Source of the DNA: Candidatus Saccharimonadales bacterium | GTDB taxonomy: Bacteria; Patescibacteriota; Saccharimonadia; Saccharimonadales; JANWIN01 | Assembly (NCBI GenBank): GCA_038231155.1 | Contig: JBBRLY010000013.1 | Span: 196,305-260,304 of the forward strand | Length of the DNA: 64,000 nucleotides | Direction of reading: 5' to 3' | Notes under the pieces: model-generated | Database searches by the model: none | What the model was told of the DNA's origin: nothing | Seen by the model: only the letters and a program-made list of their open reading frames with translations | In this document: one piece after another, positions 3,012 through 63,369 of the stretch | Numbering within the stretch: position 1 is the stretch's first letter | Layout of the letters: every line of letters begins with the position of its first letter | Position numbers and translations under genes: made by a program

Positions 3012-4583
3012 TTAGTTTAGGCTTTCGTCATTTACCAAGGTTTGTTCAACTGGTTTATATGAACTGGCGACTTTGCTGGCTATATCAGTAATAAGTTTCT
3101 TCGTTTGGTCATCTGGTTCGTCGCCATTATTAATCATTTCTACTAACTTAGGCTGATCATGCTTTAGCTCTCTGAGTAAACTATTCTGTGCAGATTTGAT
3201 TTTATCAAGTGGGACACTATCGAAACAACCTTCAGTAGCAGCAAGTAAAGTTGCGTACATCTGCCATACGGCATAGGGACTAAACTGCGGTTGTTTAAGT
3301 AATTCTGTCAAGCGTTGACCGCGTTCAATGCGCTGACGAGTCTCAGTATCAAGATCAGTAGAAAATTGACTAAAGGCCGCAAGTTCCCGAAATTGGGCCA
3401 GGTCAACACGTAAACTTTTGGCAACACTTTTAATAGCTTTGGTTTGAGCATTACCACCAACTCGGGATACTGATAAACCAACTGAGATTGCCGGGCGAAT
3501 ACCTTGATAAAACAGGTTAGTTTCTAAAAATATTTGACCGTCAGTAATTGAAATTACATTTGTGGGGATATAGGCACTAATATCTCCGGCTTGGGTTTCA
3601 ATAATTGGAAGTGCAGTTAGCGAACCAGCGCCCATGTCATCACTTAATTTGGCAGATCTTTCAAGTAGTCTTGAATGTAAATAAAATACATCGCCAGGGA
3701 AGGCTTCGCGACCAGGTGGACGACGAAGCAGTAGTGACATTTGTCTATAGGCAGCCGCATGTTTAGTGAGATCGTCATAAATAATCAAGGCGTGTTGTTT
3801 ATTATCTCGGAAATATTCTCCCATGGTTGTTGCCGCATAAGGAGCAAGGTATTGCATACTGGCCGGATCAGCAGCGCTTGTAGCAATAACAATAGATTGA
3901 TCCATTACCCCCTCACGCTTTAATCTATCTATTAAGCGAGCGGTTTTACTAGACTTTTGGCCTATGGCCACATATATATTAATAACACCAGTGTTCTGAT
4001 GGTGCTGATTGATCATCGTGTCGACCGCAACGGCAGTTTTACCTGTTTGACGATCACCGATAAGCAGCTCTCGCTGACCACGACCAATAGGTACCATGGC
4101 ATCAATAGCAGAAATACCGGTCATTAGTGGCTGATGTACGCTTTTGCGGTCCAACACCCCTGGTGCGGTTTGTTCAACTTGGCTGGTTAATTTGGTTTTT
4201 AAGGGACCTTTACCATCTAAAGTTTCTCCCATCGGATTAACTACGCGTCCAATAAGTTCCGGTCCGATAGGCACTTCCAAAACTTTTCCAGTTAATTTAG
4301 CAGTAGCTCCAGCTTTAATCAGCGTATCATCGCCCAATACTACGGCACCAATTTCTTCTTGACCCAAGTTAAAGGCAAAAGCCGTAATGGCTTCACCGGC
4401 GATGTTATCAATTTCTATCATTTCGTTATAACCACAATTTGTAAGGCCATATACCCAAGCAACTCCATCACCAACCCTAGTTACTACACCGACTTCTTCA
4501 ATTTCAGGACGGTCTTTCAGATGAGCGATAGCCTCGCGGATTTCTTCTGAAAGTTCTTTTATCGATAGTTCTAATTTAGGCAT
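3012..4583 (-). CDS. atpA: F1 ATP synthase alpha subunit
   Basis: 523 aa with Walker A GDRQTGKT and alpha-type motifs (IYDDLTKHAAAYRQMSLLLRRPPGREAFPGDVFYLHSRLLER). Confidence 0.96.
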   Translation of the reverse strand: MPKLELSIKELSEEIREAIAHLKDRPEIEEVGVVTRVGDGVAWVYGLTNCGYNEMIEIDNIAGEAITAFAFNLGQEEIGAVVLGDDTLIKAGATAKLTGKVLEVPIGPELIGRVVNPMGETLDGKGPLKTKLTSQVEQTAPGVLDRKSVHQPLMTGISAIDAMVPIGRGQRELLIGDRQTGKTAVAVDTMINQHHQNTGVINIYVAIGQKSSKTARLIDRLKREGVMDQSIVIATSAADPASMQYLAPYAATTMGEYFRDNKQHALIIYDDLTKHAAAYRQMSLLLRRPPGREAFPGDVFYLHSRLLERSAKLSDDMGAGSLTALPIIETQAGDISAYIPTNVISITDGQIFLETNLFYQGIRPAISVGLSVSRVGGNAQTKAIKSVAKSLRVDLAQFRELAAFSQFSTDLDTETRQRIERGQRLTELLKQPQFSPYAVWQMYATLLAATEGCFDSVPLDKIKSAQNSLLRELKHDQPKLVEMINNGDEPDDQTKKLITDIASKVASSYKPVEQTLVNDESLN

Positions 4584-5833: not shown

Positions 5834-6661
5834 TTAAACTCCCTTAGCTGGCATAGAATCAGCAGTTAAATCATCTTGTTGGTGATCATCACCATGTTTT
5901 ACCGATAACGATAAATAGGTGATTGATAGCATAACAAAAATATAGGCTTGAAGTAAGCAGACACCTATTTCCAGTACCACGAACGGTAGGGCAGTAAGTG
6001 GCGCTGCAAATTTACCCAAAAAAGCAAAAACCAAAATAATAATCTCACCAATTGCTACATTTAAAAATAACCTAAGTGCTAAGCTGAATATCCGAATAAA
6101 CTCATTAAAGATTTCATATATACCAGCCAAATAGGTCAGCGGGTTATATAGTTTACCACTAAAATAATGCCTTAAATGTCTGACAAATCCAGATTCTCTG
6201 ATTGCATAATATTGAATCGCTGTCATTGATATAACTGCAGCAGCCAAGGTTGCATTAAGATCAGCCGTAATAGCCCTAAACAATGCAATTCCGTGTAATG
6301 TCACTGCTTCACCTACGCCAGGGAGCAAACCAAATAGATTACTAAAGGCAATAAAAAAGAATACTGTTACAAAAAATGGAGCATACTTCAGAGCAAGTTT
6401 TCTGTCACCCATGCTATTTTCCAAAGTATTAGTAATAAAATCGGTACCAATTTCGACGATTTGGGTAAAACCGCCTTTAGGTCTCAAAGTCATATTTTTG
6501 GCCACTCTAATAAAAATGACAATTAATATTACCGAGCAAATCCATCCAAACAAAATAGAGTTTGTAATAGTCCAGCCAAAAATACTAAATAAGCCGCCTG
6601 GCGCAATATGCACTACAGGTGAAGAATCAGTGGCTAATTTTGTCCACATACTGTTAAACAC
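5834..6661 (-). CDS. atpB: Fo ATP synthase subunit a
   Basis: 275-aa polytopic protein with the essential Arg context FSLALRLFLNV. GTG start, overlapping the upstream stop by 1 nt. Confidence 0.88.
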   Translation of the reverse strand: MFNSMWTKLATDSSPVVHIAPGGLFSIFGWTITNSILFGWICSVILIVIFIRVAKNMTLRPKGGFTQIVEIGTDFITNTLENSMGDRKLALKYAPFFVTVFFFIAFSNLFGLLPGVGEAVTLHGIALFRAITADLNATLAAAVISMTAIQYYAIRESGFVRHLRHYFSGKLYNPLTYLAGIYEIFNEFIRIFSLALRLFLNVAIGEIIILVFAFLGKFAAPLTALPFVVLEIGVCLLQAYIFVMLSITYLSLSVKHGDDHQQDDLTADSMPAKGV

Positions 6662-25431: not shown

Positions 25432-28400
25432 ATGGCCCGATTACCACAGCCAGGGGGTGACGACGGAGATTGGGGGATTATACTCAATGATTTCTTAGAT
25501 GTTGCTCATAATCCCGATGGCAGTCTTAAAAATGTTGTTAGTTTAAACACCAGCCAATCTATTAGCGGCGCGAAGACGTTTTCAGTCTCGCCGACTGTAC
25601 CAACACCTGTACTAAGTGGAGATGCTACAACTAAAGCTTACGTGGACAGCACTGCCGGAGCTGGGACGACTGGGGCAACAGGCCCTGCTGGAGCAGCTGG
25701 TGCTACTGGTGCTGGTGTAACTGGTGCTACTGGCCCTATTGGTACAGTTGGAGCAACGGGATCACAAGGCACAACTGGCGCAACCGGATCAGGAGGTAGC
25801 CAAGGAGCAACCGGAGCTACTGGACCGACCGGAAGTACTGGAACGCAAGGTTCTACAGGAGCAACCGGAGCAGGCGTAACTGGAGCTACTGGACCTGCTG
25901 GAACTGTTGGAGCAACAGGTTCACAAGGCACAACTGGCGCAACCGGATCTACCGGCACGCAAGGTACCACTGGTGCGACGGGACCGACTGGGACAACAGG
26001 TACGACAGGCGCCACCGGGACAACAGGTGTACAAGGAGCTACTGGATCAACAGGAAATCAGGGCACTACCGGAGCGACGGGTCCGACTGGGACTACTGGA
26101 ACTACAGGAGCAACCGGTAGTCAAGGTAATGCCGGTGCTACCGGAGCAGTTGGGGCCAGTGGCGCTACTGGGCCTAGAGGTTTTGCTGGTGGTGATACTT
26201 TTACTTATACCTTCGATACAGGCACAACTGATGCAGACCCGGGTTCGGGCAAACTAAGATTTGATAACGCTACTGTTTCCTCGGTCACGCATATTTATGT
26301 AGACGTATTAGATAGTAATGGGACTGATGTTACAACTTGGCTCAACAATATGGGTGGTGGTGTTGTTAAGTTATTTAATAACTCAGACCCCACCAAGTTT
26401 GCTATTTTTACTGTTGGTTCAGTTACCAGCGTCGCTGGATATGATAAGTTAAATGTAACTTATACCACAAATGCTGGGACGCTTGGCACTACGGCCGCAG
26501 ATCTAGTATTAACTTTTGCTCCGCCTGGACCGACCGGTCCGCCAGGCAACGCAAGTACTCAGGGAGCTACCGGAGCTACAGGACCGATTGGTGCTGATGG
26601 AGCAACCGGTGCTGGAACCACAGGAGCCACCGGCTCAGCCGGGGCTTCAGGTTCGGCTGGTGCAACTGGTGCAACCGGAAGCAGTGGTCTCGGTTTTGGT
26701 AACGTAGTTACTAAAACAACTAACTACACAATTGTTTCAGGAGACAATGGCACAGAAATAACATTTAATGGATCTAATTTAACGGCTAAGCTACCAGCCA
26801 CAGCCCCAGCTCAGCCCTGGATGGTAACTGTTATTAATTTAAATGCCAGTAGCTTAACCTTAGATCCTAACGGCCTCACCTTAAATGGTTCAGTAAGTAC
26901 TAGCTCAATAGCTCAAAACCAAAGCGTTTTTGTTTGGTCAGACGGTACTAACTACAATTATGGTACCGGCCCCCAAGGTGCCACCGGACCTACTGGGACA
27001 ACCGGGGGACTAGGTAATACGGGGGCTACAGGTAGTGCTGGTAGTCAAGGAGCTACTGGTTCTGTAGGAGCTACAGGTTCTAGTGGTGGACAAGGGGCTA
27101 CAGGGTCAACTGGTACAACCGGAGTAACCGGTGCGACTGGACCTGCAGGTCAGTTTGGTTTAGCGAGAACTGGTGTTAAAACAGCTAACTATAGTGCTAG
27201 TGTAGGAGACTTAGTTCCTTGTGATACTAATACAACTGGTGCCTTTACGGTAACGCTACCTGATGCCCCAGCAGATAAATCTACTATTGGCATAAAGCTT
27301 ATTATTCAAGGTGCGACTAATACTGTTACTGTAGTCACTCATGCTGATGCTGGAGCTAGTGGTGGAGCAACTGGTTCTGATGTATTTAATAAAGCTGGCG
27401 GTGCAACCAGCTTAACACTTAGTCTACTTAATCAAGGAGTTATCTTAGAATACACGGCTGCATCAGCCATTTGGACAGTGCTAGCCGATGATTTGGCTTT
27501 ATCTCAACTGGATGCACGTTTTATTGCCAGTGGAGGAGCAGCCGGCGGTGACTTAACTGGCACTTATCCAAATCCGACGGTCAGTTCGACAGCTAACTTT
27601 AAGACTCAGGTTGAAACTGTACGTCTTGATCAAATGGCAGTTCCTACAGCTTCAGTTAGTCTTAATTCTCAGAAGATAACTAACCTAGCTAATGGTACTG
27701 CTGCCAGTGATGCTGCAGCCTTTGGGCAAATACCAACTGGGTTACCGCCTACAGGAACAGCCGGTGGTGACTTAACGGGTACTTATCCGAACCCAACTAT
27801 CAAGTCTGGTGTCAGTCTAACTACTCCAAATATTAATGTCGCTACTGCAACTTCTATAAACAAAGTTGCAATTACCGCTCCAGCTACTTCATCAACTTTG
27901 ACTATAGCTGATGGTAAAACACTTACAGTTAACAACTCATTAACATTTGCCGGAACCGATGGTACTACCATGACGTTCCCAAGTACATCGGCCACAATCG
28001 CCCGTACTGATGCTGCAAATACTTTCACCGGTGTCCAGACGATGACCTCGCCAGCTCTGACAACTCCAGCTATAAATGGTATTTCAACCGGAACAGGTGT
28101 AGCTACAGCCGCAACTGCTAGTACATTATTGCTACGAGATACCAATGCCAATGCCACGGCTAATAATTTTATTGAATCATATGCAACTACTACCACAGCT
28201 GCTGGTACTACCACTCTGACCGTAGGTAGTGCTATGCAACAGTACTTTACAGGCAGCGCAACCCAAACTGTTACTTTACCGGTTGCCAGTACCATGGTTC
28301 TTGGCCAAGGCTTTGCATTTACTAACAATAGTACTGGCGCAGTTACTATTAATTCATCTGGTGACAGCGCGGTTCAAGTTATGGCAGCATCATCATCTGC

Positions 28401-57983: not shown

Positions 57984-59147
57984 ATGGATAATTTAACTCC
58001 ACCTAGTCCGGTGGACACTAATATAAATGTTTCTAAAAGCAACACACCAAAACAATCAGTACCACCTCATAAACGATTAAAATGGATATTCTTCAAACCA
58101 GAACACGTTTCACGCAAAAAATGGTTGTTAGTTGACGCCGCTATAGTCTTACTTATCGGATTAGCAACGGTTAGTGCAATAGCACTTTATAAGCATTTAA
58201 CCCGTGTACCAAAAAATACACCAGTAGCTAAGGTAGCCCGAGTACCGAAGACACCAGCGGTAGTGCCATCAAGACTTACAGGCTTACCGGTGGCCGCGAA
58301 TCTAAACGATCGCCCAATTACTGGGGTTATGATTGAGAATAGTCCAGATGCGAGGCCTCAATCTGGTCTTCTTGAAGCCGGTATAGTTTACGAAGCAATT
58401 GCAGAAGGTGGTATTACTAGATTTATGGCTCTATATGAGGAAGCTCAACCTGACTACATCGGTCCAGTACGAAGTGTTCGTCCATATTACTTGGAATTTG
58501 CTTTACCTTTTCAGGCATCAGTAGCCCATGTTGGTGGCAGCCCAGAAGGCTTATCTCAAGTCAAATCACTGCATATTAGGGATTTAGATGAATTCGCAAA
58601 TGCCGGAGCCTATCAGAGGATAAGCCAGCGATATGCACCGCATAATGTTTATACCAGTTCGGCCAAACTTGATGCTCTAGAAAAGACTAAGGGCTACGAT
58701 AAAAGTACTTTCACAAGTTTCCCCCGTAAAAAAGATCAACCATCAGCGGCACCAACAGCCAAATCAATCGATATGGCCATTTCTAGCTTTTACTACAATG
58801 CCCATTATAGTTATGATACAAAAACCGATAGTTACTTTAGGTCTGAAGCTAGTACACCTCACATTGATGATCGAACTCACAAACAATTAAACCCCAAAGT
58901 AGTCATTGCTTTGGTGATGAAGTACTCAATAGAAAGTGATGGTAAGCATAGTCAATATCAAACAACTGGAACCGGCACAGCCTATATCTTTCAAGATGGA
59001 GTAGTGTATATAGGTACATGGCGCAAGGATAGTAGTGCGTCACAAATAAGTTTTGTTGACGGTAGCGGTAAACCAATTAGTTTGAACGCTGGCCAAACTT
59101 GGATCTCCTTAGTTGGGCAAAACAGCAATGTAATCTACAAACCATAG
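57984..59147 (+). CDS. DUF3048 (YerB-like) domain protein, membrane-anchored
   Basis: PITGVMIENSPDARPQSGLLEAGIVYEAIAEGGITRFMALY and VRSVRPYY are DUF3048 blocks. An extended -10, TGATACAAT, ends 7 nt before the ATG. Confidence 0.75.
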   Translation: MDNLTPPSPVDTNINVSKSNTPKQSVPPHKRLKWIFFKPEHVSRKKWLLVDAAIVLLIGLATVSAIALYKHLTRVPKNTPVAKVARVPKTPAVVPSRLTGLPVAANLNDRPITGVMIENSPDARPQSGLLEAGIVYEAIAEGGITRFMALYEEAQPDYIGPVRSVRPYYLEFALPFQASVAHVGGSPEGLSQVKSLHIRDLDEFANAGAYQRISQRYAPHNVYTSSAKLDALEKTKGYDKSTFTSFPRKKDQPSAAPTAKSIDMAISSFYYNAHYSYDTKTDSYFRSEASTPHIDDRTHKQLNPKVVIALVMKYSIESDGKHSQYQTTGTGTAYIFQDGVVYIGTWRKDSSASQISFVDGSGKPISLNAGQTWISLVGQNSNVIYKP

Positions 59148-60680
59148 ATGGATCACTTTGCACGCCTTAAGCGGCAAATATGGAAATACATATTTGCAAT
59201 ACTTCTAATCAATAGTGCCGCTTTGTTGGCCAGTTGGTGGGTACTTGAGAAAGTTCTTCACCCACGGCAGTTTGAAGTTTTAATTATCTTATCCTTTGAA
59301 GCCATAGTTTTGGCATTCATCATTGTTAGCCAAGCAATTAGTTACGTAACTGAACCAGTAAAGTTATTATGGTTATCAATTTTGCATGTCTCGCCAAACA
59401 ATAAAAGTTCAGAAGCACCTAATTTAGATAAAAGCCGAGTTGGTAGGGAATTGGTCACTAGTTTAGCTATGCAAGTTTATCAATTGGCTAACACTAGTAT
59501 CACCAGATCTTCGCAAAGTTCTGTACTGCAACAGCGAGCTCAAATCATAGCCACTAACTTGCCCTTACCGCTACTAGTTATGGATAAAAATCAAACTATA
59601 ATATTTTCAAATGATGCGGCAAGTAAATATTTAAACTTAGCTAAAGACGGGCTAGTAGGCAAAAACTTGTATAACGTTCTACCGATGTCCTTTTCAAGTC
59701 AAGATACCTTTGATAAATGGTTAGCCGAGGCTAGGTCCCAGACTATAATTTCATCACACAGCTGGGAACGTGTTCGACTGACCCAAGTTGATCACCCCAA
59801 ACCGCTGTTATTTGATATGGCAGCTTACTACAGTAAACAAAGTTCCACAGATATTGAAACAATTGTCACTTTGTTTGACCACACTGCTACCTATAGTCAG
59901 GACGATGATGCTGTTAGTTTCGTAGCCCTGGCGGTTCATGAACTTCGTATACCACTGACGTTACTGCGCGGCTATATTGAATTATTTCAAGAAGAATTTA
60001 CCGGAAAATTAAGTCCTGAACTAGCTGGTTTTATGAGTAAAATGGAAGATTCGGCTGAAAAGTTAACAGTTTTTGTTAATAATATTCTAAACCTTGCTAG
60101 AGTAGATTCTGATCAATTAATACTTTCGCTTCATCAAGAAAGCTGGAATGATGTCGTAACCACGGTCGTTAAAGATTTACAGCTTAGAGCTTCGGTTCAA
60201 AATAAACAAATTGAGGTGCAACTCGCGCCAAACATACCACCTGTAGCCGTTGATGAGGTTAGTATGTATGAGGTTTTAGGTAATCTTTTAGATAATGCTA
60301 TAAAGTACGGGGGTGCAAACCCAAAAATTATTGTCAAAACATCCTTAGGAAAAGATGGATTAGTTGAGACAGATGTCCAAGACTTTGGTGTAGGTGTTCC
60401 TCAAAACGTTGTACCGCACTTATTTGAAAGATATCAACGCAACTATCATACCAGCCAACAAATTGGTGGTACTGGGCTAGGTCTATACCTAAGTAAAGCG
60501 ATTGTTACTGCACATGGTGGCAATATTTGGATTCGCAGTAAAGAAAATCAAGGAACTGTGGTAGGATTTACGCTAAAACCTTATGCTCAAGTTGCAAACG
60601 AGCTTAAATCAAGTGAAAATAAAGAAATTACCCGACAAGCCCACGGCTGGATTAAAAATCACTCACTTTATCGCAGGTAA
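59148..60680 (+). CDS. sensor histidine kinase (2 TM, PAS-like, HisKA, HATPase_c)
   Basis: H-box LAVHELRIPLT, N-box NLLDNAIKYG, G1 DFGVGV and G2 GTGLGL. Its ATG directly abuts the upstream TAG. Confidence 0.88.
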   Translation: MDHFARLKRQIWKYIFAILLINSAALLASWWVLEKVLHPRQFEVLIILSFEAIVLAFIIVSQAISYVTEPVKLLWLSILHVSPNNKSSEAPNLDKSRVGRELVTSLAMQVYQLANTSITRSSQSSVLQQRAQIIATNLPLPLLVMDKNQTIIFSNDAASKYLNLAKDGLVGKNLYNVLPMSFSSQDTFDKWLAEARSQTIISSHSWERVRLTQVDHPKPLLFDMAAYYSKQSSTDIETIVTLFDHTATYSQDDDAVSFVALAVHELRIPLTLLRGYIELFQEEFTGKLSPELAGFMSKMEDSAEKLTVFVNNILNLARVDSDQLILSLHQESWNDVVTTVVKDLQLRASVQNKQIEVQLAPNIPPVAVDEVSMYEVLGNLLDNAIKYGGANPKIIVKTSLGKDGLVETDVQDFGVGVPQNVVPHLFERYQRNYHTSQQIGGTGLGLYLSKAIVTAHGGNIWIRSKENQGTVVGFTLKPYAQVANELKSSENKEITRQAHGWIKNHSLYRR

Positions 60681-60686
60681 ACTTAT

Positions 60687-61076
60687 ATGGATGAACCACA
60701 CCAAACCTCTAGCCGACGCAAAATCTTGTTTTTAGAAGACGAGCCATTTATTGGCGAGATTTACTCTAGAGCTTTAGTTAAGGCCGGTAACGAAGTTAAC
60801 TTAATAAAAGACGGTCATCAGGGATTTGAACAAGCTAAAACAGGCACTTACGACATTATTCTTTTAGATCTAATGATGCCTAATATGCTGGGGCTAGATA
60901 TACTTCGTCGGCTGCGGACTGAAGTACCGAACCTAAAGTCTAAAATTATTGTGACGACAAATTTGGAATACTCTAAAGAGCGACGAGCAGAGATTGAAAA
61001 GCAGGCCGACGGTTACCTTATTAAAGCCGCTATTACGCCTCATCAGCTAGTGGATTTTCTAAGCAACGTTAAATAA
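60687..61076 (+). CDS. stand-alone receiver-domain response regulator
   Basis: 129 aa with acidic pocket LEDE, phospho-acceptor ILLDLMMP, and the T (VTTN) and K (YLIKA) positions. No output domain. Confidence 0.85.
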   Translation: MDEPHQTSSRRKILFLEDEPFIGEIYSRALVKAGNEVNLIKDGHQGFEQAKTGTYDIILLDLMMPNMLGLDILRRLRTEVPNLKSKIIVTTNLEYSKERRAEIEKQADGYLIKAAITPHQLVDFLSNVK

Positions 61077-61200
61077 TGACTTCTGGGGTTTTTCATTTAA
61101 AAGTCAGAGCTCTTCCAAGGCTTGAAATAGAAAACAAAATGGCTTCACATGTTTAAAGGCTAGTGCTACTATAGCTATAGTCATGTGAGTATGAGCCCTT

Positions 61201-61229
61201 TTGGGCCATCTACTTACAGGCTTTATAAT
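61201..61229 (+). promoter_or_regulatory. candidate promoter inside the long non-coding gap
   Basis: TTGGGC-N17-TATAAT (the -10 is at 61224-61229). It would give a roughly 170-nt 5' UTR for the small-protein/polymerase operon. Confidence 0.35.
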
Positions 61230-61406
61230 CCAAGCAGGCAAGCATACCTCGGTCACTGTGCGCCTTATCCAAATCTAAGTTACTCGCGCCACAGGAAGTG
61301 TTAAAAGAACGGTTAATTCTTTCTAGCGAGCAGCTCTTGTCAAAATCCGTTCACTGGCAATAACTTTTGTCAGATCTCTTAATTATTACCTCAAAGGAGC
61401 TTGGAT

Positions 61407-61661
61407 ATGAACAATCTACTCAATAAAGAAGTTGAAATTAACTCATTTGCTTTTATTAATCGACAAGGGCTTTGGAGCGTACCACGCTCCATAACAGTCG
61501 ATAACAAGCAGTATTCGTTTGTTGACTTAGGATTACGTTACTTAATTCAAAAAGGCCAACATCTGATCAGTTTATTTGATATGAGCGACGGTCAAAACAT
61601 TTATCGCCTCAAAAACGAAGACGACCAGTGGACACTAGTAAGCATCAAGACCGCCTCTTAG
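61407..61661 (+). CDS. small protein A (84 aa), paralog of the next gene
   Basis: ATG 61407 lies 7 nt after AGGAG. The pattern LNKEV...P..I...NK.Y......G......G..L.......D....Y.L.......WTL is shared with protein B. Confidence 0.6.
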   Translation: MNNLLNKEVEINSFAFINRQGLWSVPRSITVDNKQYSFVDLGLRYLIQKGQHLISLFDMSDGQNIYRLKNEDDQWTLVSIKTAS

Positions 61662-61678
61662 GCAGTCAGGCGGTAATT

Positions 61679-61945
61679 ATGCGTGAAAAGATTAATCAAG
61701 AGGTGAGTGTAGTTGCGGTGTTTAGTGCCAAGCAGAAAGTAGCTGCGCCATATCTAATAAGCTGGCAGAATAAAGACTACCAGTTAGATAAAATTGGCTA
61801 TCATCACATCATCCACAGAGGCAAGACCCTGCATCATATCTACGAACTAGCAGATAGAGATAGCAGTCTATACTTTCGCCTTAATCTAGATACCAGCAAT
61901 TTGCATTGGACGTTGGAGGTTGTCAGTGATGGTCTCCCGTCTTGA
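61679..61945 (+). CDS. small protein B (88 aa), paralog of the previous gene
   Basis: I moved the start to MREKINQEV (61679). The shared pattern is INQEV...P.LISWQNKDYQLDKIG....HRGKTL.......D...LYFRL.......WTLEVV. Confidence 0.6.
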   Translation: MREKINQEVSVVAVFSAKQKVAAPYLISWQNKDYQLDKIGYHHIIHRGKTLHHIYELADRDSSLYFRLNLDTSNLHWTLEVVSDGLPS

Positions 61946-61993
61946 ACCCAAAACTATTTTTGGACTGTTTACAGAGACGGGTAAGGGTTGGTA

Positions 61994-63235
61994 ATGGAAA
62001 TCCCGATTAACTACGCCCAGCCAATGATTATGCATATTGATTTGAATTCCTGCTTTGCAATTATTGAGCAGCAAGCTAACCCCTTAATCCGCAATAAGCC
62101 GGTAGCTGTAGCGGCTTACGATACACCCGGTGGCATGGTACTAGCATCCAGCTATGAGGCCAAAAGTCTAGGTATAAAACTGGGTCTTAACGTTGGTCAG
62201 GCCAGAGAAATTTGTAAAGATATTATTGTACTGATGCCTGATCCGGCTAAATACCGTGATGCCCACCGTCGTTTCCGTGACGTATTACTTAATTACACCA
62301 GTGAGGTTACACCTAAATCCATAGATGAATTTATAATTGACTTTAATGGTGCTCCAGCTTTGCGTCAAGGTCTGAACTTAACCAACATTGGTTATCAGAT
62401 CAAAGCTGATATTAAAAAGTCCTTAGGCGAATACGTTACCGTTAATGTAGGCATCTCTACCAATCGAACCTTAGCTAAAACGGCTGCTAACTTGCAAAAG
62501 CCAGATGGGTTAAACGTGATTGAGGCCCGTAACCTGCGTCAAACTTTGACCAGGTTAGAGCTACTTGATCTACCGGGCATTAATATACGTTATGAAGCCC
62601 GCTTGAATATGAGCGGCATTTACACTCCACTGCAGTTTATGGATGCCGATGGCAATTTTTTAAAAAAACAGGTATTTAAAAGTAAGGTTGGTATGGATTG
62701 GCATTACCGTCTTCACGGCTGGGAAGTAGATGACGTTACTTGGGGACGCAAAAGCTTCGGCCATCAATACGCCTTGTACGACAAAACCACTGATAGGCAA
62801 AAACTGTCACAGCTGCTCATGAAGCTATGCGAAAAAACCGGTCGGCGTTTACGCCAAGGTGGTTATACGGCCAGTGGTATTCGTCTATGGCTGACTTTCA
62901 CTAACCACCAATACTGGGCACAAGGTAAAGATACCAAAAATCAGATGTACAGCACCCAAGATATTTATTTTCAAGCTCACAAGCTATTAAATATGATAAC
63001 TCTGCCAGCTGGCGTGGCTCATATGGGTGTAACAGTGTTTAAACTTCTGCCTAGCTATCCGGAGCAACTAGGTTTATGGGACGGTACGCGAGCCGATACT
63101 AAAGCCTTAGCTCGGGCAGCTGACGAAGTGAACGACAGGTATGGTGAATTCACTGTAGTGCCTGCCATAATGGCTAATATGGATGGTTTGATTCTAGACC
63201 GTATCGCTTGGGGTAATGTTAAAGATTTATACTGA
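61994..63235 (+). CDS. Y-family DNA polymerase (DinB/UmuC-like) with catalytic residues present
   Basis: MHIDLNSCFA (catalytic Asp), SIDEFIID (Asp-Glu) and ISTNRTLAKTAANLQKP (HhH / little-finger region). The ATG start is 6 nt after AAGGG. Confidence 0.85.
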   Translation: MEIPINYAQPMIMHIDLNSCFAIIEQQANPLIRNKPVAVAAYDTPGGMVLASSYEAKSLGIKLGLNVGQAREICKDIIVLMPDPAKYRDAHRRFRDVLLNYTSEVTPKSIDEFIIDFNGAPALRQGLNLTNIGYQIKADIKKSLGEYVTVNVGISTNRTLAKTAANLQKPDGLNVIEARNLRQTLTRLELLDLPGINIRYEARLNMSGIYTPLQFMDADGNFLKKQVFKSKVGMDWHYRLHGWEVDDVTWGRKSFGHQYALYDKTTDRQKLSQLLMKLCEKTGRRLRQGGYTASGIRLWLTFTNHQYWAQGKDTKNQMYSTQDIYFQAHKLLNMITLPAGVAHMGVTVFKLLPSYPEQLGLWDGTRADTKALARAADEVNDRYGEFTVVPAIMANMDGLILDRIAWGNVKDLY

Positions 63236-63369
63236 GTCCTCACCAGTTGAACTGGCTATTTTTTCAAGTTGTAATTATGCGACAAGCTTTATATCTGGTT
63301 TCATTATTGTTAAATTTAAATAAATCCTTGTATTTAACAATTATGTCAGTCCTTTTATTAGTAAAAATA

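Follow-up and report, generated by a model that had tools for sequence, protein, structure and literature searches.

The stretch of DNA investigated here, 64,000 nucleotides (nt) of contig JBBRLY010000013.1 from a Candidatus Saccharimonadales bacterium and referred to as the window, carries three open reading frames (ORFs) that encode two small proteins, A and B, and a Y-family DNA polymerase, and that are preceded by a structured leader RNA. Together they probably constitute a translesion-synthesis cassette in which B is a divergent ImuB-C polymerase subunit, A is a paralogue of B and the leader RNA gates transcription. The protein module is a highly divergent form of the pair of a Y-family polymerase (PolY) and a standalone ImuB-C protein, a pair that is itself experimentally uncharacterised; PolY-ImuB-C modules have been predicted by comparative genomics and, to our knowledge, no function of ImuB-C has been shown so far.

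In the proposed mechanism the leader, with its promoter-like site and its terminator-like hairpin, probably gates transcription of all three genes. A is the first gene behind the leader and would have the looser tie to the window polymerase; B would always be produced along with the latter. Judging from UmuC-UmuD′, YqjW-YqjX and ImuB, B most likely binds the C-terminal region of the polymerase, and perhaps RecA as well, in the role of a small subunit for regulation or targeting, and polymerase and B would together form a multi-subunit error-prone polymerase.

An ORF check of the window placed the three genes in one direction on the + strand, exactly where the original prediction had put them. 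The gene of protein A (84 amino acids, aa), a putative A-type ImuB-C-like small beta-protein, extends from the ATG at 61407 to 61661 and is preceded by the ribosome-binding site (RBS) AAGGAG at 61394-61399. Protein B (88 aa), a putative B-type ImuB-C-like protein distantly related to DUF6504, is encoded at 61680-61945 with an ATG at 61680, and its ORF is also open from an upstream GTG at 61628, which corresponds to 105 aa. Homologues were used in both assignments, together with a structural model in the case of B. The polymerase gene occupies 61994-63235 and starts at the ATG at 61994 (413 aa) or at a TTG at 61988 (415 aa). A consensus scan located a terminator-like hairpin (CCAGTTGAACTGG) with a T-run at 63243-63265 on the + strand, 8 nt past the polymerase stop codon; the sole other terminator-like site on this strand between A and that stop codon was a weak one at 62267-62282, inside the polymerase gene. 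This arrangement is consistent with co-transcription of A, B and the polymerase as one transcript.

Linkage of B to the polymerase

One genome per species was scanned with an alignment of B proteins only, the combined A+B alignment being too diverse, and 46 loci (L004-L049) were obtained. In 42/42 of the species-level loci with readable downstream DNA, B was directly followed by an orthologue of the window polymerase, and the linkage to the polymerase that the original prediction had singled out for a survey was thus borne out for B. The gene calls of B and the polymerase overlap by 14-20 nt in relatives, which suggests translational coupling of the two. An A-type gene was found within 4 kb of B in only 12/46 loci, sometimes beyond an intervening gene or on the far side of the polymerase. 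B and the polymerase therefore form the conserved unit and A is optional; the A-B-polymerase trio is not what is conserved. Outside the B loci, A-type genes head cassettes of UmuD-like and UmuC-like genes or stand alone.

The neighbours of B-type genes include LexA and SRAP proteins. In Gottesmanbacteria and another lineage of the candidate phyla radiation (CPR; L052-L055, e.g. L052:3398-5510), the order is a full-length LexA-like S24 gene, a B-like gene and the polymerase gene; the Gottesmanbacteria B-like protein is 50% identical to B. The gene of a further distant B-type member overlaps the N-terminus of a polymerase. A SRAP gene (YedK-type, N-terminal MCGRY) lies divergently beside B in 18/46 loci (e.g. 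L005:3310-3981, minus strand), with only ~30 nt between the start codons of SRAP and B. No lexA is encoded in the Saccharimonadia cassettes, and no shared LexA-box-like palindrome was evident by eye in the upstream regions. The statement of the original prediction that the window holds no lexA or umuD agrees with our search of the 64 kb, in which neither an S24/LexA homologue (phmmer with CPR S24 queries) nor a SRAP homologue was found, recA and dnaE2 not having been searched for.

Further observations were made among the loci collected. In the most divergent pairs of B and polymerase (L047-L049), B is 46-49% identical; the assemblies in question bear the label Gammaproteobacteria, one of the pairs lying on a contig of 1.57 Mb, and a repeated AAACCCAAATA motif occurs upstream, where the leader-RNA model gave no match. 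The taxonomic assignment might stem from binning, or a transfer of the pair might have taken place. In L062 and L063 (5001-5703), an A-type gene precedes two ORFs, one of 73 aa that weakly matched IMS and one of 74 aa, which may be the remains of a decayed polymerase; this A-type gene is widespread, being present on 65 contigs, and has a heliorhodopsin gene just upstream. Searches of plasmids by tblastn with the polymerase and the family consensus revealed no ImuB-C-type neighbours. Among plasmids, the polymerase was best matched at L059:3367-5646 (Methylophaga thalassica plasmid NZ_CP143310.1), where the order is lexA, Pol IV and an overlapping 146-aa hypothetical gene; the 146-aa ORF had no Pfam match and may encode another uncharacterised polymerase accessory.

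Relationship of A and B

A and B had been taken for a tandem duplication. When the two proteins were compared by BLASTP, the match was not significant (E 0.81). Global alignment gave a score of 72 vs 14.3 ± 6.0 for shuffled sequences (z = 9.7), a value that was reached by 0/2000 shuffles, and the profiles of the A family and the B family matched end to end in hhalign (probability 97.4%, E 9.4e-12). The residues P24, G48, W77 and L79 are invariant over 58 A and B sequences. Homology over the full length was therefore confirmed, but the duplication is not a recent one: identity between A and B is ~22% and each of the two subfamilies is itself old and diverse, which indicates an ancient event. 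A is thus an ancient paralogue of B and not a recent tandem copy.

Close homologues numbered 22 for A and 254 for B. All of them are unannotated and derive from assemblies of Candidatus Saccharimonadales or Patescibacteria, and no Pfam domain was found in them; likewise, no family was assigned to A or B themselves by Pfam and NCBIfam scans. An exhaustive search with a joint A+B profile yielded 436 cluster representatives at 50% identity, nearly all of them single-domain proteins of 80-95 aa. Among the best 150 family members, 121 were B-type and 29 were A-type.

A set of His residues was also observed in B proteins of Saccharimonadia, in which H43, H52, H53 and H76 never vary and H42 hardly does (motifs IGYHH, TLHHI and NLHW). 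These conserved residues of the B-type are not present in A and could represent a metal or interaction site.

Remote homology to ImuB-C and DUF6504

Standalone ImuB-C proteins are described in Aravind et al. 2013 (PMC3765255) as all-beta, with a conserved C-terminal Trp and without a catalytic signature, and SRAP appears there as the other reported partner of ImuB-C. The operon order lexA-imuB-C-polY is known in Geobacter (PMC6511836 and PMC3765255), and a 2026 survey (PMC12926913) modelled ImuB-C as a beta-barrel with a novel fold and a role in subunit contacts. The C-terminal Trp of A and B (W77), invariant across the 58 sequences, corresponds to that description of ImuB-C, and an operon association with a Y-family polymerase, LexA and SRAP was found for the B-type loci.

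In profile comparisons the relationship to DUF6504 emerged with the breadth of the alignment used. The best DUF6504 match among the 58 A and B members had an E-value of 0.039 and occurred in 1/58, and 20 distant family members had no match in Pfam. With the family-wide consensus, DUF6504 was the top Pfam match (E 0.0018), at 18.9 bits vs a gathering score of 24.2. A broad B-type profile (107 sequences) matched the Deinococcus DUF6504 alignment from end to end, across 83 columns, with a probability of 81%, an E-value of 1.2e-5 and a score of 33.7; the scores of the controls were 8.7-9.6 for reversed profiles and 9.5 ± 2.2 for 60 column shuffles, with a maximum of 17.7. The A-type is tied to DUF6504 solely through the B-type, by the hhalign match between the two families. 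W-K-x-R-x-Y and F-R-L motifs are carried by the B-type consensus, in which one Arg aligns with a conserved Arg of DUF6504; none of the basic residues is invariant in A and B alike.

The operon lexA-imuY-(80-aa gene)-dnaE2 of Deinococcus deserti was located on plasmid 1. Its small protein is annotated as a member of the DUF6504 family and matched Pfam DUF6504 with an E-value of 6.3e-7, which links the name used in Pfam with a free-standing small protein encoded in a lexA-PolY-dnaE2 operon of ImuB-C type. Structure prediction for B resulted in a model with a mean confidence (pLDDT) of 87, without helix and with six strands (2-16, 21-29, 32-46, 49-59, 65-71 and 76-83). The model of the DUF6504 protein (pLDDT 94) also has six strands (2-13, 16-22, 25-38, 49-56, 59-66 and 73-79), in the same order and of similar lengths. 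No fold neighbours were found in the PDB for either model, which agrees with the novel beta-barrel fold proposed for ImuB-C (PMC12926913), and a sequence profile search of the PDB returned nothing for the A/B family or for DUF6504.

Taken together, the broad-profile matches, the gene neighbourhoods and the order of the predicted strands place A and B in the ImuB-C/DUF6504 superfamily. We therefore class the two, at the level of remote homology, as divergent branches of it that were missed by Pfam; the interpretation in the original prediction was partly right. The resemblance to small proteins upstream of ImuB-type genes, which the original prediction had raised with reserve, is thus supported by the distant match to DUF6504 and by the LexA and SRAP contexts, and its central suggestion, that A and B are small accessories of a mutagenic polymerase and akin to the ones in ImuB systems, gains support from homology and linkage. 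Its other candidates, UmuD and YolD, were dropped. An identity as UmuD or Peptidase S24 was rejected, there being no Pfam or NCBIfam match in the window proteins and 58 relatives, and so was a YolD-like identity (PF08863), for which no match at E <= 1 was obtained in the same proteins and to which the B model, not being an SH3 barrel, does not correspond.

The polymerase

The polymerase matched the Pfam families IMS (E 4e-33) and IMS_C (E 3.5e-11). The catalytic Asp and the Asp-Glu pair are kept (DLNSCF and SIDE), and the motifs HIDLNSCFA and SIDEFIID that had been reported for it are both present in the translation. From these residues it is predicted to be an active-type Y-family enzyme. NCBIfam models of Pol IV matched below their curated cut-offs, the best being PRK01810 with 185 bits vs 399, which indicates a distinct Y-family clade.

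The C-terminal region, to which B is proposed to bind, is conserved over 45 polymerase orthologues. It contains a clamp-type motif Q-L/M-x-L-F/W, which resembles motifs for binding the beta-clamp and is present as QLGLW in the window, and a block sLa.AaD.vNdrYGEF, followed by a tail M.NM..il.RvAFG. The window polymerase also carries a motif, KALARAADEVNDRYGEF, that resembles the N-terminus of RecA. The C-terminal profile aligned to RecA residues 6-22 (HKALQTAMSQIEKQFGK), and 3/1000 shuffles were as good, which hints at a RecA-N-terminus-like motif in this polymerase. Such motifs were reported in PolYs that pair with ImuB-C by Timinskas and Venclovas (PMC6511836), and the conserved QxxLF-like motif together with the putative RecA-like one might reflect the combination typical of these polymerases (PMC6511836).

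Structure of the leader RNA

Upstream of A lies a spacer of 330 nt that is conserved between divergent loci and contains a structured leader RNA of ~210 nt (61176-61392, + strand), a feature that the original prediction had overlooked. A consensus scan revealed a promoter-like site with a -35 element TTCACA (61144-61149) and a TG-extended -10 element TACTAT (61167-61172), from which a promoter function may be presumed; the -10 element aligns with a conserved TATAAT or TATAGT, found 7-10 nt before helix P1 in relatives. The 5′ domain (61176-61270) consists of helices P1 and P2. P1 is formed by 61184-61191 with 61211-61218 and encloses a variable inner hairpin, and P2 by 61236-61247 with 61252-61265; P2 has an asymmetric internal loop that is conserved and a cap that is a UUCG loop in many relatives and CUCG in the window. 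The 3′ domain (61278-61352) contains the long-range helix P4 (61278-61287 with 61326-61335), which encloses a hairpin presenting GAACGG (61307-61312); this hexamer can pair with CCGTTC (61347-61352) outside P4 and form the pseudoknot P3. A terminator-like hairpin with a U-rich tract follows at 61354-61388, its arms being CTGGCA (61354-61359) and TGTCAG (61368-61373); it was recognised in the minimum-free-energy fold and lies ~20 nt before the RBS of A.

Covariation was found in both domains. A covariance model of the 5′ domain (R1) had a single match in the window, with 70.9 bits and an E-value of 4e-17. In an alignment of 33 sequences, 91.6% of the cells of this domain were paired, compensatory changes occurred at 10/14 pairs, and 59 cells showed double changes, compared with 21 ± 4 after shuffling (0/500 as high) and at most 13 when the partners were slid. 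RNAalifold, applied to MAFFT alignments, did not recover P4 or the terminator hairpin, and P4 and P3 were tested through a hand-specified structure on alignment A8 of 22 leaders. In this alignment 85.6% of the P4 and P3 cells were paired vs at most 52% when slid, and P4 showed compensatory changes at 8/10 pairs. P3, a likely pseudoknot, was 99% paired, with invariant pairs or G-U changes only. The window sequence alone folded into P1, P2, P4 with its inner hairpin and the terminal hairpin (z = -2.1), and P3 was present in the centroid. The arms of the terminator-like hairpin co-vary by eye (CTGGT/ACCAG, CTGAC/GTCAG and CCGAT/ATCGG), and across A-type loci the hairpin and U-rich run end 20-35 nt before the RBS of A. 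No match in Rfam 15 was obtained with 300-nt slices of the window and of L032 (E <= 10) or with the whole window (E <= 1 or gathering thresholds), and no description of the leader RNA turned up in the collection of papers searched.

Distribution of the leader RNA

The model of the 5′ domain matched the + strand upstream of the cassette in 38/46 loci at E <= 0.01, these E-values being rough, and loci with B only were among them. It gave no match in the LexA-type loci (L052-L055). Two copies were found in L007, one at 3220-3298 (+) upstream of SRAP, B and the polymerase and one at 6276-6388 (-) directly upstream of an A gene on the opposite strand. The solo A-type loci L061-L063 also have the 5′ domain. 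In SRAP-type loci the 5′ domain occurs alone, ~700 nt from B, where it overlaps the 3′ end of the SRAP gene on the opposite strand in a convergent arrangement, and some B-only loci retain the P2 module alone.

A metagenome scan with a pattern taken from the RNA only yielded 21 loci, of which 19 could be evaluated. An A-type gene was present 150-190 nt downstream of the RNA in 19/19 of these. In six loci (L064, L071, L075, L078, L080 and L081; e.g. L081:6533-8803) the order was RNA, A-type gene, a gene for a UmuD-like S24 protein (~127 aa) and a polymerase gene, and in five further loci the contig ended past the S24 gene. In the loci scanned as examples, the S24 product matched the NCBIfam UmuD subfamily (E 1e-17), and the polymerase matched UmuC with 352 bits and was ~28% identical to the window polymerase. 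These results indicate that the A-type is native to a second, Pol V-type cassette and that the RNA is tied to translesion genes generally.

Alternative explanations

Several points weigh against the reading of B as an ImuB-C subunit of this polymerase with A as its paralogue behind a gating leader. No single member of the A/B family reached the Pfam gathering score for DUF6504 (24.2 bits), narrow profiles matched the Deinococcus DUF6504 alignment with E-values of 0.01-0.04 only (hhalign), and the A-type profile alone gave a non-significant match (E 0.019). The reference alignment for DUF6504 is made up of Deinococcus sequences only, and the models of B and DUF6504 were compared by strand order only. 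The loci were sampled via B, so that polymerases of this clade without B would escape. In the window itself, B and the polymerase are separated by a gap of 48 nt and do not overlap, and in SRAP-type loci an antisense gene stands between the 5′ domain of the RNA and B, which misfits a simple leader.

A and B might belong to the ImuB-C superfamily and yet not be stable subunits of the polymerase; as non-catalytic proteins they would sense or bind damaged DNA and bring in the polymerase along with other repair proteins, as proposed by Aravind et al. 2013 (PMC3765255). There, ImuB-C is also described together with Ku/ligase, with SRAP alone and with photolyases; the occurrence of A-type genes with two polymerase types and alone fits such a more general factor, and the wider B-type consensus is basic (isoelectric point, pI, 9.5). 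However, A and B of the window are near-neutral (pI 6.5 and 7.0), B is strictly coupled to one polymerase clade by overlapping genes, and AlphaFold models put ImuB-C in protein-protein contacts (PMC12926913); we therefore regard a sensor role as rather unlikely. An SH3-barrel accessory of the UmuD′ or YolD type would occupy the same position upstream of a Y-family polymerase and would likewise be small and all-beta. This is highly improbable for A and B, since the B model has six long strands and is not an SH3 barrel, no SH3 or UmuD match was found in the PDB, and related cassettes encode a true UmuD-like protein besides A; moreover, the window proteins and 58 members had no Pfam match to Peptidase_S24 or YolD-like at E <= 1, PADLOC and PHROGs not having been searched. 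That A and B are hitch-hiking or spurious small ORFs with no role for the polymerase, as their lack of database annotation could suggest, is effectively refuted by hundreds of conserved homologues of fixed length, by the confident fold prediction and by a polymerase adjacency that is invariant across CPR classes.

For the RNA, the choice is less clear-cut. It might be an uncatalogued regulatory RNA class dedicated to translesion cassettes of Saccharibacteria (the A-type with UmuD/UmuC, the B-type with PolY), a riboswitch-like element or protein-gated attenuator that replaces LexA operators; we put this forward tentatively, as a possibility that falls short of an even chance. The signal for such a leader might be a damage-related metabolite or else protein A. 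Somewhat less probable, and still a live rival given the SRAP loci with the 5′ domain only and the B loci with P2 only, is an independent small RNA gene, protein-binding or acting in trans, that is merely syntenic and of which A is perhaps the partner. Its own conserved -10 box and its hairpin with a U-run would suit such a gene, as would the distance of ~700 nt to B in the SRAP-type loci. Against it, the hairpin ends so close to the RBS of A (20-35 nt) that no room is left for a separate promoter, the RNA-only search retrieved an A-type gene downstream in every evaluable locus, and both copies in L007 are oriented toward a gene of the family.

Neighbouring regions of the window

Directly upstream of the cassette (57984-61076), genes for a DUF3048-like protein, a histidine kinase and a response regulator were observed; DUF3048 is syntenic with the cassette in L001-L003. 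The region 25432-36262 of the window has a G+C content of 0.47-0.54 vs ~0.40 elsewhere and contains ORFs of 1790 aa and 1080 aa. No rRNA was found in it by Rfam, and the region may represent acquired DNA or giant surface proteins.

Significance and comparison with known systems

If A and B are placed correctly, PolY-ImuB-C modules extend to the candidate phyla radiation through two divergent subfamilies, with at least 436 clusters at 50% identity, that were missed by domain libraries. The split between A and B would mean that one accessory fold serves two polymerase types, the A-type with UmuDC-like and the B-type with DinB-like cassettes. That B and the polymerase are strictly paired in genomes of very small size argues for a requirement for the small subunit in polymerase function, and the compact pairs are good material for biochemistry and structure work. 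Should the leader be regulatory, it would represent RNA-based control of mutagenic polymerases in a lineage with lexA-less cassettes and would offer a handle on damage tolerance and the control of mutagenesis in ultra-small episymbionts.

The leader resembles terminator-type riboswitches and attenuators in being a promoter-proximal conserved RNA of several helices, probably including a pseudoknot, after which come a hairpin, a U-run and an RBS; unlike the catalogued ones, it has no match in Rfam 15, and some loci keep the 5′ domain only. Pairs of the UmuD and YolD type are built on a similar plan, in which a Y-family polymerase, one that also makes use of RecA, is preceded by the gene of a small, beta-rich accessory, but their accessories have an SH3-type core fold and, in UmuD, autoproteolysis, whereas A and B of the window carry no S24 or YolD signature. 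In the ImuA-ImuB-DnaE2 mutasome of Mycobacterium and Pseudomonas, the ImuB-C beta-barrel follows a RecA-N-terminus motif and mediates subunit contacts (PMC12926913), a role similar to that proposed for B; there, however, ImuB-C is fused to an inactive polymerase and binds DnaE2, whereas here it is free-standing, the polymerase is predicted to be active-type and the cassette has no dnaE2.

The lexA-imuY-DUF6504-dnaE2 operon of D. deserti shares with the cassette a standalone DUF6504/ImuB-C protein, with a six-strand order that matches B, and a Y-family polymerase. It differs in the position of the small gene downstream of the polymerase, in the presence of DnaE2 and in a W-rich GGRWWLGE motif that is not found in A/B. 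From the Geobacter sulfurreducens operon SRAP-lexA-imuB-C(GSU0042)-polY, the cassette is set apart by proteins too divergent for Pfam DUF6504, by two paralogous subfamilies and, in Saccharimonadia, by a structured RNA upstream in place of lexA. It agrees with that operon, and with modules of PolY and standalone ImuB-C (plus RecA) in general, in having a small all-beta protein with a conserved C-terminal Trp directly upstream of an intact polymerase, in the RecA-N-terminus-like motif suggested for the polymerase, in the CPR relatives with LexA upstream and in the SRAP neighbour.

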